Shown here: piece after piece, positions 29,613 to 40,760 of the stretch
Position numbering within the stretch: the stretch's first letter is position 1
How the letters are laid out: every line of letters starts with the position of its first letter
Origin: a virus
Taxonomy: Duplodnaviria > Heunggongvirae > Uroviricota > Caudoviricetes
DNA: 49,359 nt
Virus record (IMG/VR): IMGVR_UViG_2875722834_000005
Span: 1 to 49,359 of that record
Direction: 5' to 3' (one strand)
The notes under the pieces: model-generated
The model's input: only the letters and a program-made list of their open reading frames with translations
Told to the model about the DNA's origin: nothing
The model's database searches: none
Made by a program: the position numbers and the translations under genes

Positions 29613-29886
29613 GATTTTGTCCCTCGTTATAGCTACATCTAGCTCAAAAACAAAACAACAAACACAAGATGTAGTGATTTACGGTCTTTAAATACACGAA
29701 AAGCCTCAAAACGAGGCTTTAAAAGAGTCTTTTTGATAAAGAACTAAACAGACTATAGCGAGTCAATTACAGATTTGACAAGTAAAAAAGGGATTAAAAG
29801 CTCATAAAAACGGCTTTTTTGGATTATTCATCATCTTTTTTGATGCACGTAACAATCCAAATATAAAAACAAAGTTTTGACAAAAA

Positions 29887-29904
29887 ACCCGCTCGATGGC
29901 GGGT
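29887..29904 (-). terminator. Hairpin ACCCGC-N6-GCGGGT with flanking A/T runs about 65 nt downstream of the Q-position gene (late-region regulatory element)
   Basis: Seen directly; on the minus strand followed by TTTTTTG. Confidence 0.45.
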
Positions 29905-29970
29905 TCTTAATTCTTTGTCGACCTACGAAGCTATGGCGACGATATCAGATTTACATGAAATATATGCGTT

Positions 29971-35312: not shown

Positions 35313-36085
35313 CGAATAAGACCCCGTTCAACGCCCCTGCGGTACTCTTCACATAACCATTGCGCCGGTGTTAGCGCGCCCAGTGATGCGGCATTTGGCA
35401 TGCAGCCAAAGCTTTTCCCTTCAGGGTGATAGCCAGTTCTGCGGCTCTCGTGAGTCGTGGGGATCACCTCTTCGTGATACTCAAGCGCGACTACCGGGGC
35501 AGGAATTTGCTCACCTGATGCCACCTTCAAAGCCCATTCTTCAAGCTTTTTGGCTGCGTACTTTTCGGTCTCGACTTCGCTGAGCTGGCGCTGGTACATT
35601 GCCCGGCGGGTGTCGGTCACCACCCAATACATGACCGGGTGCGTCCATGGGAAGTTTTCAGCGCCACCAACATGAACGCCCTTCTCGCGGCTGTAGCGGT
35701 GAAACTCGTTCATCACATCCACGATACCCACGCCCAGCACTGAGTTGCTGTCTTTGCACCACTTTATGAATTGCCCCGGCGACGGCCAGAACGGGGATGC
35801 GCTTGCCCTGGCATGGCGGACACCTGCCGATAACTGCTCTCTGGTTCGAATTCCGTTCTCAGAGAACGCCGCGATCCACTGGCGCTTTGCCGTCTTCTCG
35901 TCAGCGTCGGTTTTGAGGTTGGTCTGTGATGCCGCCGGGAATATCTGTTTCAGCTGGCGAAAGAGCGAGTCGACCAGGTTCTCGGCCTCGATGTTGATAA
36001 CGTTTTTCGGATCGTAGCTGCCGGACATCCGGGCCAGCGCATCACCGTCACGGTTCTGAATTGCTGCCATCAGTTGCATTGTCAC
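35309..36085 (-). CDS. P: Replication protein P (helicase loader)
   Basis: Matches lambda P blocks (RQW..AF.ENGI; PF.PSPGQF..WC). Confidence 0.8.
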   Translation of the reverse strand: MTMQLMAAIQNRDGDALARMSGSYDPKNVINIEAENLVDSLFRQLKQIFPAASQTNLKTDADEKTAKRQWIAAFSENGIRTREQLSAGVRHARASASPFWPSPGQFIKWCKDSNSVLGVGIVDVMNEFHRYSREKGVHVGGAENFPWTHPVMYWVVTDTRRAMYQRQLSEVETEKYAAKKLEEWALKVASGEQIPAPVVALEYHEEVIPTTHESRRTGYHPEGKSFGCMPNAASLGALTPAQWLCEEYRRGVERGLIR

Positions 36086-36834
36086 AGGAAGTCCTCCCAG
36101 CCTTCACGGCTATTCCAGTGCGGGGTTTCTGGCTCACTGCGGCTGCGCTTTGATGCCAGGGGGTTAACGCGGGCGTTTCGGATCCAGACGCGGAATGCTG
36201 AATTCCAGTCAATCAGGGTTGTGCCTCGCGCTGTGTGGTAGTCACGGAAGTTGAGCAGCTCGGTTTCTATGCTGACCCCTTTCTCGGCAGCCATGGCGAT
36301 ATGCTCTGCAGAGGGTTTGAATTGAGCGGGAAAAGGAATTCCACTGCCAGTCGGCAGGCCCATTCTTGTCTTCGCTGCTTCGCTCATAAATCCTTCGCGC
36401 CCAGAGAGAGAGTTAGGTTCATTGACTGGTTCAAAAGAGTGACTGATTCTGGGTGCAGCTCCTGCACTACCCCCTAGTGAATCTCCTGCACTAGGTAGTG
36501 AATCTCCTGCACTAGGTAGTGAATCTCCTGCACTAGGTAGTGAATCTCCTGCACTAGGTAGTGAATCTCCTGCACTAGGCAAGGTGAGGATGTAGATGTT
36601 TGTAGAATTGCCTTTCGGCCCCTTCCTGAAGACTTTTTTCAGCAATCCTGACTGGCAAAGATCATCAATGTGGCTCATGACTGAACGCTTGCTGATTTCG
36701 CACTGGTCAGCGATGTATTGATAGCTAGGCCAGCACTCACCCTGATCGCTGGCATTGTCAGCAAGCTTCAGGAGAACGAGCTTACGTAATGGGTTGCCGA
36801 CCTTAATTTGCATGGCTTTCACCATTAACATCAT
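36082..36834 (-). CDS. O: Replication initiator O-like protein (HTH N-domain, iteron-encoded linker)
   Basis: Position between cII and P; HTH N-terminus; contains 21-bp iterons; start approximate. Confidence 0.7.
36459..36580. repeat. Origin-type iterons: 21-bp direct repeat CTCCTGCACTAGGTAGTGAAT, 4 perfect plus 2 imperfect copies, inside the O-like gene
   Basis: Seen directly; encodes (LPSAGDS)5; analogous to ori-lambda iterons within O. Confidence 0.7.
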
Positions 36835-37012
36835 GCTCACTATGAGTTCTCCTGTTCTGCTTGAAGATGATTTCCACACACACATACACGCACTCATCAC
36901 AGATACATGCGCCATCTCCTGTGATGATCGTTGCAACGTCGTTATTGGTTTTCCCGCAAAACGAGCATTTGTGAGTGGGATGTGGGTTTGCTTTTCCTGA
37001 CTGGTTTGGCAT
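36803..37012 (-). CDS. Small protein with ClpX-type C4 zinc-binding domain
   Basis: [29 protein letters not shown] aligns with the ClpX N-terminal zinc-binding domain (CSFCGK..ICDECV); lies between cII and O. Confidence 0.55.
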
Positions 37013-37419: not shown

Positions 37420-37608
37420 TTACGGGGTTTTGCTGTGCGGGAAAGGCTTGATTTCTTCAGCCTTGATTTTCCCGTCGGGCAGTCGGTTGATAAAAATCTG
37501 ACGCCCAACCCTAATTGCCTTGCTGATTGCCGTCTGGTGTACACCGATAGCGTCAGCTGCTTTGGCCTGACCTACCTCGCCAACAAACTCAGCTAAAGAA
37601 ATCTTCAT
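37420..37608 (-). CDS. cro: Cro repressor
   Basis: 62 aa; GQAKAADAIGVHQTAISKAI matches the lambda Cro HTH; KPFP tail. Confidence 0.85.
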   Translation of the reverse strand: MKISLAEFVGEVGQAKAADAIGVHQTAISKAIRVGRQIFINRLPDGKIKAEEIKPFPHSKTP

Positions 37609-37638
37609 GTGGTTGCTCCTTTGAGTGCATAACCAAAC

Positions 37639-37677
37639 AATACCAGAAGTATTACATAAAGCAATACCTGCGGTATT
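37639..37677. promoter_or_regulatory. OR operators (two clear AATAC-N5-GTATT sites) within the PR/PRM region
   Basis: AATACCAGAAGTATT (37639-37653) and AATACCTGCGGTATT (37663-37677) between cro and cI starts. Confidence 0.6.
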
Positions 37678-37711
37678 TTTAAAATATGAGCTTTGGTATT
37701 AATATCTGATA

Positions 37712-38422
37712 ATGGAAAAGAAAAAGATTCTCACCCCCGCTCAAGTGGCTGATTCACAGCGTTTAAAAGCCCTTTACGAAGCGAAGAAAAAAGAACTGGG
37801 TATTACTCAGCAATCCATTGCGGACGCGCTGGACATTTCTCAGGGTGCCGTCGGCCATTACCTCAATGGAAGGAATGCCTTAAATACAGCGGTAGCATCG
37901 GTCTTTGCCAGGCTTCTTGGGGTTAGTGTCTCTGATTTCAGCCCGTCACTTGCGAAGGATATCTCTGATATGAGCTCGGTGGCGTCGGAAAATACTTCTT
38001 TCGCAGGGCATTATTCACCTGGCTCAAAATATCCGGTGATTAGCAAAGTTCAGGCGGGCGCCTGGTGTGAAGCTGTTGAGCCGTACACCCTTAAAGATAT
38101 CGACCTTTGGCTTGAATCAGATGCTCACATTCAGGGGGAGGCGTTCTGGCTGCAGGTTGATGGTGACTCAATGACGGCGCCAGCTGGCTTGAGCATTCCT
38201 GAAGGAACCTTTGTCCTCTTCGATACTGGTCGGGAGGCGATCAACGGAAGCTTGGTAATAGCAAAGCTATCCGATTCTAACGAGGCGACTTTTAAGAAGC
38301 TGGTGATCGATGGTGGGCAGAAGTACCTGAAGGGCCTTAACCCGCAATGGCCACTCGTGCCGATTAATGGTAACTGCCGTATCATTGGTGTAGCTGTAGA
38401 GACGAAGCTGCGGCTGGTCTGA
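37712..38422 (+). CDS. cI: CI repressor (HTH N-domain, S24 self-cleaving C-domain)
   Basis: Lambda CI-like blocks (KKELGITQQSIAD; FSPS; VQAG; GDSM; TFKKL); no leader before ATG, as for PRM transcripts. Confidence 0.9.
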   Translation: MEKKKILTPAQVADSQRLKALYEAKKKELGITQQSIADALDISQGAVGHYLNGRNALNTAVASVFARLLGVSVSDFSPSLAKDISDMSSVASENTSFAGHYSPGSKYPVISKVQAGAWCEAVEPYTLKDIDLWLESDAHIQGEAFWLQVDGDSMTAPAGLSIPEGTFVLFDTGREAINGSLVIAKLSDSNEATFKKLVIDGGQKYLKGLNPQWPLVPINGNCRIIGVAVETKLRLV

Positions 38423-38571
38423 TCGGCAAGGTGCTCTGGTCGGCGCATAGCTGGTGAAAAAATTATTTAATGCAGTGTATTAGCTGATTGTAACCCCATG
38501 TAACATCTTGCCGTCACCATTTCGGTGGTTAGATTTTTAATAAAAAAAACAAATGTATAGCAAGGTTTTTT

Positions 38572-39051
38572 ATGGATAAAATTAATTACCCACCCCTGTT
38601 TGAGCCACGGTTCCATGACATGGATGAAGCTGGATTAAAATCGTATTGTGTCGATTGCTTTCCTTCATCATCCAGGCGAGGCATGCTATACTGTAATTTT
38701 ATACAGCTACTCGAATCTATTCGAGAATTATCTGCTCAATATGGCTGTTTTACAGAAATATGGGTTGATGGTTCATACACCACGTCTAAACCAGAGCCTG
38801 ATGATATTGATATTTTGTTGGTATGTGACTATAGCAAGATAAACTCAATACCTGTCATGCTTCGGGGCCGCGTCGATAATTTGCTTGACCGAAACTACAT
38901 CAAACAAAACTACAAAATTGATGTCCTACTACTCATGAAGAATTTAGATGACCCTAACTATGATTATGAGTACTGGCGTAGCTACTGGCGCGGTTGGTTT
39001 GGTTTTGATCGCAGTGAAAACCCGAAAGGGTTAGTGAGGATTTTTTTATGA
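38572..39051 (+). CDS. Minimal nucleotidyltransferase-fold protein (159 aa), first gene of operon in rexAB-equivalent position
   Basis: GS-x8-DDIDILLV with downstream KIDV fits the Pol-beta NTase hG[GS]..DxD..D signature; AT-rich; downstream of cI. Confidence 0.55.
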   Translation: MDKINYPPLFEPRFHDMDEAGLKSYCVDCFPSSSRRGMLYCNFIQLLESIRELSAQYGCFTEIWVDGSYTTSKPEPDDIDILLVCDYSKINSIPVMLRGRVDNLLDRNYIKQNYKIDVLLLMKNLDDPNYDYEYWRSYWRGWFGFDRSENPKGLVRIFL

Positions 39052-39980
39052 ATGATAAATCAATGTTTAAAAATTGCGATAAACGCATTGATTTCATTCA
39101 AAAAGAAGTCGATGCAATGAAGCAAAACAAAACCAGGTCCTTTGCTGACATGCTTCTTTATCGCTCCATGGATTCTCATCTGAGCGATTTGAAGGCCGAA
39201 AAATTAAAGCAAGATAGTCGGCACCCACTTATCGATTTTTTTGAGCTGCGGCTGAAAGGCTCTGAGGTTGACTTTGGCTCTATTCCTTTAGAGCTGCTTG
39301 GGGCTATTTCAACAAATCTTGCAGCGCTAATACAAAGAGCAACACACAAAATTGCCTCAGGCAAGGACTCAAAAAAAGTTCCCTACGACGTGAAAAGCTC
39401 CTTAAACCTCAGGCTGGCTGATTTATCCCCTGGGTCTACAAAATTGGGCGTCACCTTCTCTACAGGAATAGCAGAATTAGTAGAAACAGTACCCAGCAAG
39501 GCTGTAAAAGGCATATTCGATTTGTTGTTAAGCGATGACGACAACAACTTCATGAATCACGTCGCTGAAATTGGATACAATTCCACTGTAAGCCTTAAGA
39601 GAATCGTAGAGGAATGTGATAAACACAACTTAACATTTGATGCAAGTTGGACCGGTCCATTTAGTAATGGCACCAAGGTGGCAACTATTGACTCCAATAA
39701 AATTAAGTACTTGGTGAGTAGACTTACATCAACCATTTCATCCCCTCCCATTACTGAAACGGTTACAGGCGAACTGGTCGTTCTATCCAAATATGGGAAG
39801 CTGGAGCTTGATGTTGGTGGTGAACATTTAAAGGCTTCCTATCCGATTGAAATGCTAGATTTAATACAAAAAAAACACAAGGTCGGACAGATTGTTTCTC
39901 TTTTAGTGGAGACTACTGAGATTCACAATGATCGCATAGGTCTGTACCGTAAAAACCATCTTGTTAAATCGGTTCTTTAA
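39048..39980 (+). CDS. Hypothetical 310-aa partner protein, translationally coupled to the NTase-fold gene
   Basis: Start ATG overlaps upstream TGA (ATGA); no recognisable motifs; followed by a strong terminator. Confidence 0.55.
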   Translation: MNDKSMFKNCDKRIDFIQKEVDAMKQNKTRSFADMLLYRSMDSHLSDLKAEKLKQDSRHPLIDFFELRLKGSEVDFGSIPLELLGAISTNLAALIQRATHKIASGKDSKKVPYDVKSSLNLRLADLSPGSTKLGVTFSTGIAELVETVPSKAVKGIFDLLLSDDDNNFMNHVAEIGYNSTVSLKRIVEECDKHNLTFDASWTGPFSNGTKVATIDSNKIKYLVSRLTSTISSPPITETVTGELVVLSKYGKLELDVGGEHLKASYPIEMLDLIQKKHKVGQIVSLLVETTEIHNDRIGLYRKNHLVKSVL

Positions 39981-39987
39981 TATCTCA

Positions 39988-40014
39988 CCCGGCCACCGCG
40001 CCGGGTTTTTATTT
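39988..40014 (+). terminator. Rho-independent terminator after the two-gene operon
   Basis: CCCGGC-CACCGC-GCCGGG followed by TTTTTATTT. Confidence 0.65.
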
Positions 40015-40212
40015 ACCCTTCCGCACCATCTCAGCCGCATGCCTGTTAGCTCCCTTCCCTATCACGTTTCCTGTTTCCTTCCGGTACTGCTCCAGCTTGT
40101 CGATGATGTTTTGCTGGGTCATAGGTAAATCTGCCAGTGACAACTCCATGACCGCCCGCCCCATCGCCTGAATTTTCATGCTTATACGCTCTTCATCCAG
40201 AACCATGCACAT
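40009..40212 (-). CDS. Hypothetical small protein (67 aa) antisense to the PL direction (weak call)
   Basis: ORF only; between the operon terminator and OL. Confidence 0.25.
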   Translation of the reverse strand: MCMVLDEERISMKIQAMGRAVMELSLADLPMTQQNIIDKLEQYRKETGNVIGKGANRHAAEMVRKGK

Positions 40213-40274
40213 CCCTCCTGCTGTTTTTTTAAGCGTAGCACTGGTATTTACAAAAATAAAATCACATCAAATTC

Positions 40275-40343
40275 ATACTCTTAGTATTAATCAAAGATTT
40301 ATTAATACTGGCGGTATTGCTATATATTAATACCGCTAGTATT
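40275..40343. promoter_or_regulatory. OL operators (three ATAC-N5-GTAT type sites) / PL region
   Basis: ATACTCTTAGTAT (40275-40287), AATACTGGCGGTATT (40304-40318), AATACCGCTAGTATT (40329-40343); same consensus as the OR sites. Confidence 0.55.
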
Positions 40344-40475
40344 GTTACCCCATCGAAACGAAACATCGACAGCTGAGCGAAGTTAGCCAGCGGAGAAGTT
40401 GAGATTCGGTCAGTCGAACGGCGCGACAGTAAACCATGCGTCGGACCATAGGCGGGCTCAGGAAGAGCGGCAATT

Positions 40476-40760
40476 ATGGCTAAACGATTTACCAGCAGCT
40501 CTTTGCGAGGGGCTGACGGTAAACAAACAGAGGGGTGGAAATCATGCTTGGGTGTGAAAAGTGCGACCACGGATTCGTGTTCACCAGATGCTGTTCTGGT
40601 CTTGCTGAAATGTGTGGATGCGGCGGAATGCCGGTTCAGGCCACTAATTGCAAGAACTGCAATCCAGAGAATAAAGAGCCGGATGACGCGGAGACAGAAT
40701 CGCTTCTCCAGTATGTCGAATGGGTCGATTGATCAGCATTTCTCCCGCATCAGCGGGTAA
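40476..40760 (+). CDS. Hypothetical first gene of the PL operon (N-antiterminator position; identity unconfirmed)
   Basis: ORF only; an overlapping alternative Cys-rich frame (40535-40732) cannot be excluded. Confidence 0.25.
   Translation: MAKRFTSSSLRGADGKQTEGWKSCLGVKSATTDSCSPDAVLVLLKCVDAAECRFRPLIARTAIQRIKSRMTRRQNRFSSMSNGSIDQHFSRISG

Follow-up and report, generated by a model that had tools for sequence, protein, structure and literature searches.

HK620-type palindromes as likely CI and Cro operators of a lambda-type immunity region on a phi80-like siphovirus backbone

Background

The GenBank record of phage HK620 (AF335538; Clark et al. 2001) annotates three right operator sites (OR1-3) and three left operator sites (OL1-3). 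The phage mEpX2, which carries an HK620-type repressor gene cI, has been placed experimentally in an immunity group of its own, apart from lambda, phi80, HK022 and mEpX1 (PMC3442831). Here, we analyze the immunity region of a Caudoviricetes virus, IMG/VR record IMGVR_UViG_2875722834_000005. The entire stretch of 49,359 bp is referred to as the window, and all coordinates are positions within it. An earlier note on this DNA proposed that a repeated palindrome flanking cI marks the operators of the repressor. The palindromes, refined here to AATACY-N3-RGTATT, are very likely the CI and Cro operators of a lambda-type bistable lysis-lysogeny switch. The operator reading is supported by the overlap of the sites with promoters, by the exchange of the operator block for another in phi80 and HK639, and by a motif that accompanies one recognition helix across many genera. 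The consensus itself is not new, since it is already annotated in the 2001 record of HK620. The window would represent a further example of HK620-type operators and repressor, carried on a siphovirus backbone resembling phi80, mEp237 and HK225.

Results

The motif AATACNNNNNGTATT (AATAC-N5-GTATT) has four exact copies in the window, at 37639-37653, 37663-37677, 40304-40318 and 40329-40343. The mean expectation from dinucleotide-preserving shuffles is 0.02 exact copies per window. The sole site with a single mismatch in the 49 kb (CATACTCTTAGTATT, 40274-40288) adjoins the second exact pair. All sites with at most one mismatch fall in two clusters. The first is assigned to OR because it is sited in the 103-bp interval between cro and cI, and the second to OL because it lies directly upstream of the plus-strand early operon. 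Centre-to-centre distances are 24 bp between OR1 and OR2, 25 bp between OL1 and OL2 and 30 bp between OL2 and OL3. The earlier note had counted at least two palindromes in OR and three in OL at spacings of about 24-30 bp, which agrees with the four exact copies, the one-mismatch copy and the measured distances. A similar frequency of the motif throughout the genome, named in that note as speaking against operators, is not what we find, as the motif is restricted to the two clusters. Relaxing the search to two mismatches adds seventeen matches scattered over the window, and the total of 22 against 14.3 expected is at chance level. A half-site GGTATT at 40243-40248, considered as a fourth site, and a two-mismatch match in cII (37208), considered as an operator, were both judged to be at chance level as well.

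The motif follows a particular recognition helix across many phages. The comparison covered 160 loci encoding relatives of the window CI, drawn in equal numbers (80 each) from one-genome-per-species contigs and IMG/VR. The helix class was defined as Q[GS][AG][VI]GHY[LI]NG (QGAVGHYLNG in the window), and the motif was counted at one mismatch or fewer within 130 bp upstream of cI. Nearly all non-redundant repressors of this helix class have at least one motif copy (43/44), and most have two or more (39/44). By contrast, 41 of 45 non-redundant relatives with the same C-terminal domain and a different helix-turn-helix (HTH) lack the motif. The background in the upstream flanks amounts to three matches in 190 kb. 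The 44 helix-class repressors belong to prophages found in no fewer than 15 enterobacterial genera (among them Escherichia, Enterobacter, Siccibacter, Lelliottia, Lonsdalea, Tatumella, Providencia, Pantoea, Serratia, Yersinia, Proteus, Morganella, Pectobacterium, Phytobacter and Kluyvera), and one further locus is labelled Chryseobacterium. Other helices pair with other palindromes. In Enterobacter phage ENT1 and prophages of Kosakonia and Buttiauxella, the helix KGAVSHWLNAR is found with TATAC-N5-GTATA, and a Pseudomonas prophage combines QSSVSHYLNG with AATGCC-N3-GGCATT. A matrix built from 156 strong sites of the 44 non-redundant loci refines the consensus to AATACY-N3-RGTATT, with high information content in both half-sites and close to none at the central 3 bp. 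The variable centre of 5 bp described in the earlier note thereby shrinks to 3 bp; variability holds for these three positions, and positions 6 and 10 are constrained as Y and R.

The sites also keep fixed offsets of about -73, -49 and -26 from the cI start codon in 57 distinct OR sequences, in which the other bases vary. Intergenic regions are AT-rich, and palindromes of this kind might arise there by chance or through composition. This explanation is refuted and retains practically no probability, given that none of 100 dinucleotide-preserving shuffles reaches four exact matches and that the offsets persist while the surrounding bases change.

The genes bordering the first cluster are those of a lambda-type switch. 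The cro gene (37420-37608, minus strand) encodes 62 amino acids of the lambda Cro family (Pfam Cro PF09048, E 1.5e-22), and the nearest solved structure is lambda Cro, with 5CRO among the closest entries of the Protein Data Bank (PDB). The cI gene (37712-38422, plus strand) encodes 236 amino acids with a lambda-type N-terminal HTH and Pfam matches to HTH_3 and Peptidase_S24. The recognition helix of CI reads QGAVGHYLNGRN, and the S24 domain carries the self-cleavage motifs QAG at 114, GDSM at 151 and FKKL at 194. CI shares 42% identity with lambda cI, and the nearest PDB entries are 3BDN and 1LMB, with 3BDN first. The two genes are divergent and 103 bp apart, and a homologue of cII comes after cro. 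Pfam and structure matches thus bear out the gene identities and orientations (Cro minus, CI plus) that the earlier note had assumed.

The OR sites are arranged with the geometry of lambda, OR1 lying at -66, OR2 at -42 and the third site at -18. OR1 (AATACCAGAAGTATT, 37639-37653) is exact and centred at -66 from the cI ATG, matching the conserved offset of -73 in relatives. OR2 (AATACCTGCGGTATT, 37663-37677) is also exact and centred at -42 from the ATG, which is also the putative +1 of the repressor maintenance promoter (PRM); the offset in relatives is -49. OR3 (ATGAGCTTTGGTATT, 37687-37701) follows 24 bp from OR2, centred at -18 (offset -26 in relatives), and is degenerate, with an intact right half and a left half matching at two of five positions. 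Relatives read AATAGC or AATAAC-N3-GGTATT at this position. OR3 is weaker throughout the family, with a mean of 1.7 mismatches over the 44 non-redundant loci, and it is the cI-proximal half that is conserved and runs into the -10 hexamer of PRM.

The OR sites lie on promoter-like hexamers read from the sequence. The candidate right early promoter (PR, 37637-37664, minus strand) has a -35 hexamer TTGCTT (37659-37664), a 16-bp spacer and a -10 hexamer TATTGT (37637-37642). Its -10 lies within OR1, and its -35 abuts and overlaps OR2. The pattern TTGnnn-16/17-TATTnT recurs at the same place in 38 of the 44 non-redundant relatives. The candidate PRM (37677-37712, plus strand) combines a weak -35 hexamer TTTTAA (37677-37682), which touches OR2, with a -10 hexamer TAATAT (37700-37705). 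This -10 ends up 6 nt ahead of the cI ATG, which has no Shine-Dalgarno sequence, and transcription might start at about the A of the ATG. Relatives show a TAnn[AT]T hexamer 5-7 nt before the ATG in 39/44 cases and a Shine-Dalgarno-like motif in just two of the 44. These two observations together support a leaderless cI mRNA across the family.

The second cluster repeats this layout at the opposite early promoter. OL3 (40274-40288) is the one-mismatch copy, and close relatives read CATACC-N3-AGTATT at the same place. OL2 (AATACTGGCGGTATT, 40304-40318) and OL1 (AATACCGCTAGTATT, 40329-40343) are both exact. The candidate left early promoter (PL, 40317-40345, plus strand), likewise read from the letters, consists of a -35 hexamer TTGCTA (40317-40322), a 17-bp spacer and a -10 hexamer TATTGT (40340-40345). 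The -35 overlaps the end of OL2, and the -10 lies within OL1. PR and PL are alike in that the -10 TATTGT is made from the GTATT half of the first operator site and the -35 TTGCTx abuts the second. The -10 of PL is in the same register as the annotated -10 of phi80 pL, relative to the conserved leader 'tacYccatcgaaacg'. An OL1-OL2 pair, defined as two sites 24-25 bp apart, occurs in 34 of the 44 non-redundant loci. The OL clusters of relatives comprise two or three sites and begin 31 to 3,519 bp past the cI stop codon.

Phages with related backbones carry other operators at this very position. Homology to phi80 (79%) and HK639 (88%) covers the stretch from the terminator (39987-40006) behind the cargo genes that follow cI up to and including the PL leader. 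An alignment of the window, HK639, phi80 and a prophage of E. coli M37H shows conserved flanks and a replaced operator block of about 90 bp between them. The conserved flanks are a small minus-strand open reading frame (ORF) upstream and the leader ccatcgaaacgaaacatcga / 'ccatcgaaacgaaacatcgacagctgagcgaagttagccagcgg' downstream. The block contains the annotated CI operators of phi80, which are AAATCAACA/AATCCACA-type 19-mers, ATAACC-N3-GGTTAT in HK639, and AATAC-N5-GTATT in the window and M37H. The OL palindrome agrees with the OR of the same phage in each phage compared. The cI products of phi80 and HK639 have no significant similarity to the window CI, the phi80 protein being 236 amino acids long as well. 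Megablast matches to HK639 and Enterobacter phage ENT1 span the OL block and had suggested shared operators, which we rejected on reading the sequences (ATAACC-N3-GGTTAT and TATAC-N5-GTATA, respectively).

The overlap of the motif with hexamers raises the possibility that the repeats mainly reflect promoter architecture, i.e., duplicated -10 and -35 modules of PR and PL, with the true repressor sites elsewhere or only partly overlapping. GTATT does supply the TATT of the -10 in both promoters, and the bases following OL1 (GTT) and OR3 (A) are likewise conserved. Promoter modules would not account for the two-fold symmetry, however, nor for the equal conservation of both halves even outside the hexamers, as in the left half of OR2 and all of OL3. 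The motif also tracks the recognition helix rather than the promoter context, with phi80 and HK639 keeping the promoter positions and using other palindromes. We consider a purely promoter-based origin of the repeats very improbable.

A different alternative accepts the sites as CI operators and assigns Cro to another or a shifted set, which would make the motif a determinant of lysogenic immunity and not of the lytic arm. The window Cro has diverged further from HK620 Cro (48% identity) than CI has from its HK620 counterpart, as such a separation might predict. Yet the window Cro belongs to the lambda family, its recognition helix QTAISKAIRVGR resembles QSAINKAIHAGR of lambda, and the 103 bp between cro and cI show no other repeated palindrome. 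In lambda, 434 and P22, the two proteins use common operators, which also counts against separate sites. Binding by CI alone is therefore an improbable alternative to the sharing of these operators by CI and Cro.

A two-gene cargo lies between cI and OL (38572-39980, plus strand). It encodes PDC-M63A (159 amino acids) and PDC-M63B (310 amino acids), which match the PADLOC candidate defence system PDC-M63 with E values of 7e-40 and 7.5e-45, respectively. PDC-M63A has the Pfam domain DUF6932 and a G-S...D-x-D motif that, in our own reading and not as a tool result, could indicate a nucleotidyltransferase-like protein. PDC-M63B has no Pfam match. The position of this operon between the two operator clusters agrees with the comparison to rexAB of lambda made in the earlier note; rexAB is co-transcribed with cI in lambda. 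The cargo has a GC content of 37-42%, lower than the 45-53% of the flanks. Phage mEpX1 carries the cassette at 99.4% identity. Of the window cI, the match takes in no more than the last few bases, and the mEpX1 copy therefore appears to sit next to a different cI. AT-richness and a copy beside a seemingly different cI are traits of mobile morons. Within the 150 bp that separate cI from the cargo, a weak hairpin runs into a T-rich stretch (38510-38529), and an AT-rich segment could provide the cargo with a promoter of its own. The putative unit of cI and cargo ends in the intrinsic terminator at 39987-40006 (plus strand), a GC-rich stem of seven pairs followed by a T run, and phi80 and M37H have a homologous hairpin. 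The interval between cI and OL appears to be a variable cargo slot, given that in relatives OL lies anywhere between 31 bp and 3.5 kb past the cI stop codon (loci L014, L015, L025-L028, L031 and L035 against L023 and the window). This insertion hotspot has varied contents, with E. coli M37H, for instance, carrying an antitoxin gene of the MqsA family.

The small ORF upstream of OL3 (40009-40212, minus strand) lies between the cargo terminator and OL3 and encodes 67 amino acids, with a likely ATG start at 40206 behind AGGAGG. It is kept in phi80 (69 amino acids, unannotated), HK639 (HK639_46), E. coli M37H and Enterobacter phages, and has no Pfam or PADLOC match. A promoter for this ORF would fall within or beside OL3, and the ORF may thus be controlled by the repressor. 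Downstream of PL, the leader of the early operon (about 40420-40545, plus strand) is putL-like and nearly identical to the 'putL-like antiterminator RNA' of HK639. This leader is context and not part of the operator. Scanning the whole window at Rfam gathering thresholds gave no match at the PL leader, neither to put nor to any other RNA family. The phage probably relies on RNA-mediated antitermination of the HK022 type instead of N/nut, judging from the leader. With the same operators, the prophage of E. coli M37H changes to a phi80-like nutL leader directly after 'gccagcgg'. The only Rfam match in the window is the Hfq-binding small RNA isrJ (29883-29955, minus strand; 58.7 bits, gathering score 37). 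A perfect tandem repeat of five 21-bp units (TAGTGAATCTCCTGCACTAGG, 36475-36579) lies within a replication gene resembling O (36082-36936, minus strand), where it encodes LPSAGDS five times. By analogy with lambda O, the repeats are probably origin iterons.

Discussion

The window has the layout expected of a lambda-type switch. Divergent cI (HTH and S24) and cro genes flank a short control region. Three OR sites, two exact and one degenerate with 24-bp phasing, overlap the putative PR and PRM, and a second cluster (40274, 40304, 40329) covers the opposite early promoter (TTGCTA-17-TATTGT). The analysis demonstrates the non-random occurrence of the sites, their position over promoter-like hexamers, the protein families and the association of motif and helix; from these, we infer binding, an order of occupancy, activation, looping and a leaderless start. 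CI and Cro dimers would bind the same sites. In the prophage, CI at OR1 and OR2 would cover the -10 and -35 of PR and keep cro, cII and the replication genes off, and CI at OL1 and OL2 would do the same at PL for the early operon with the put-like leader. CI at OR2, positioned at -42 against the weak -35 of PRM, probably activates the leaderless cI mRNA. The weak OR3 and OL3 might be filled only at high CI levels and then shut PRM as negative autoregulation, for which an OL-OR loop of about 2.65 kb may be used. SOS-activated RecA would trigger self-cleavage of CI, for which the Ala-Gly, Ser and Lys motifs are present, and lead to prophage induction. After cleavage of CI, Cro would take over the same sites.

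Several points weigh against this account. A functional third OR site is uncertain, as only one good half-site is left in OR3 of the window. A generic sigma-70 scan called no promoter at OR or OL, neither PR, PL nor PRM, each of which falls below the threshold because it matches at eight of 12 positions or fewer; the hexamers miss the threshold by one match. The overlap of GTATT with the -10 hexamers means that conservation could partly reflect promoter function and not contact with the repressor. For operators of this type, our search brought up no published binding data, with the literature likeliest to report any lying outside that search, and a full-text search for the half-sites retrieved nothing but unrelated papers. 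The operator annotations of HK620 are themselves sequence-based.

The contribution is mostly one of annotation. The coordinates of OR, OL, PR, PRM and PL are fixed in this prophage, and the candidate defence cassette PDC-M63 is placed inside the immunity region, where expression in lysogens would be expected. The 156 sites from 44 non-redundant repressors, together with neighbours in which helix and operator have changed jointly, form a natural data set bearing on specificity shifts of lambda-family repressors at operator positions 3-4. No concept is changed by the finding, which is correct but ordinary.

The earlier note took the sites to define the immunity specificity of the repressor. The consensus tracks the recognition helix. 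The consensus alone does not define a unique immunity specificity, since many diverged repressors (55-100% identical) use it. The sharing of consensus and helix despite identities of about 55-66% in the DNA-binding domain might tentatively, and with low confidence, point to either a very broad cross-immune supergroup or discrimination beyond the half-site consensus. Candidates for such discrimination are contacts between arm and spacer, cooperativity interfaces and differences in Cro. The Yersinia massiliensis CCUG 53443 contig NZ_HE997643.1 carries two prophages (L018 and L053) whose CI proteins both have the QGAVGHYLNG helix. The OR2 sites of the two prophages differ, with the L018 type departing from the consensus (gctactacaagtagg), a hint of sub-specificities in this operator family.

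Judged by cI, the nearest named phages are HK620, mEpX2, HK140, HK630 and several Stx2 phages, with 76% identity. The comparison with operators of known immunity groups, suggested in the earlier note, recovers the same consensus in the HK620 record, where the annotated sites read GAATACTACAGGTATTC, (C)AATACTCAGGGTATT, TAAGTACCTTAGCTATT, AAATACCTTGGGTATTT and AAATACCTACAGTATTC. HK620 and the window share this consensus at OR and OL, the offsets from the cI ATG, the weaker OR3 and a lambda-type Cro. The CI recognition helix of HK620 (QGAVGHYLNGRNALN) is identical to that of the window, and only the preceding residue differs (S against T). The repressors themselves are more distant, with 90.5% identity in the C-terminal domain and 65.6% (61/93) in the DNA-binding domain at the N terminus. 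Homoimmune phages usually have near-identical DNA-binding domains, and this is not the case here. Given the 65.6% identity of the N-terminal domain, we do not file the window in the HK620/mEpX2 immunity group and assign it only the same operator consensus; its repressor appears to be a distinct allele. HK620 is a P22-like podovirus with N/nut and carries hkaS after cI, whereas the window belongs to a phi80/mEp237-like siphovirus with a put-like leader and PDC-M63 in that position. Two phages, phi80 and HK639, resemble the window in the backbone around OL, with the small minus-strand ORF, the leader and the placement of the PL -10 in common; HK639 also shares the put-like RNA. Unlike the window, they have repressors unrelated in the HTH region and different operators.

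In both lambda and the window, CI and Cro belong to the same families, three OR sites follow one another at 24-bp spacing with OR2 at -42 of PRM, cI is leaderless (a prediction for the window), three OL sites lie about 2.6 kb away, and cargo genes, rexAB in lambda, separate cI from OL. The operators are nonetheless distinct, as the earlier note had stated, with the half-site AATACC in place of TATCACC. In the 17-bp register, nAATACY of the window and TATCACC of lambda share A2, A5, C6 and C7, AT replaces TC at positions 3-4, and the window type shows no constraint at position 8. Helix 3 differs from that of lambda by S45G, G46A, A49H, L50Y, F51L and I54R. A contact map of the lambda repressor and operator has reportedly been drawn from co-crystals by Jordan and Pabo and by Beamer and Pabo. 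The lambda residues that we take to contact the shared bases (Gln33, Gln44, Asn52, Asn55 and the Lys3-Lys5 arm) are conserved in the window CI, and those presumably lying over operator positions 3-5 in helix 3 are altered (S45G, G46A, A49H and L50Y). By comparison with lambda, this pattern fits a local re-specification of a lambda-like DNA-binding domain.

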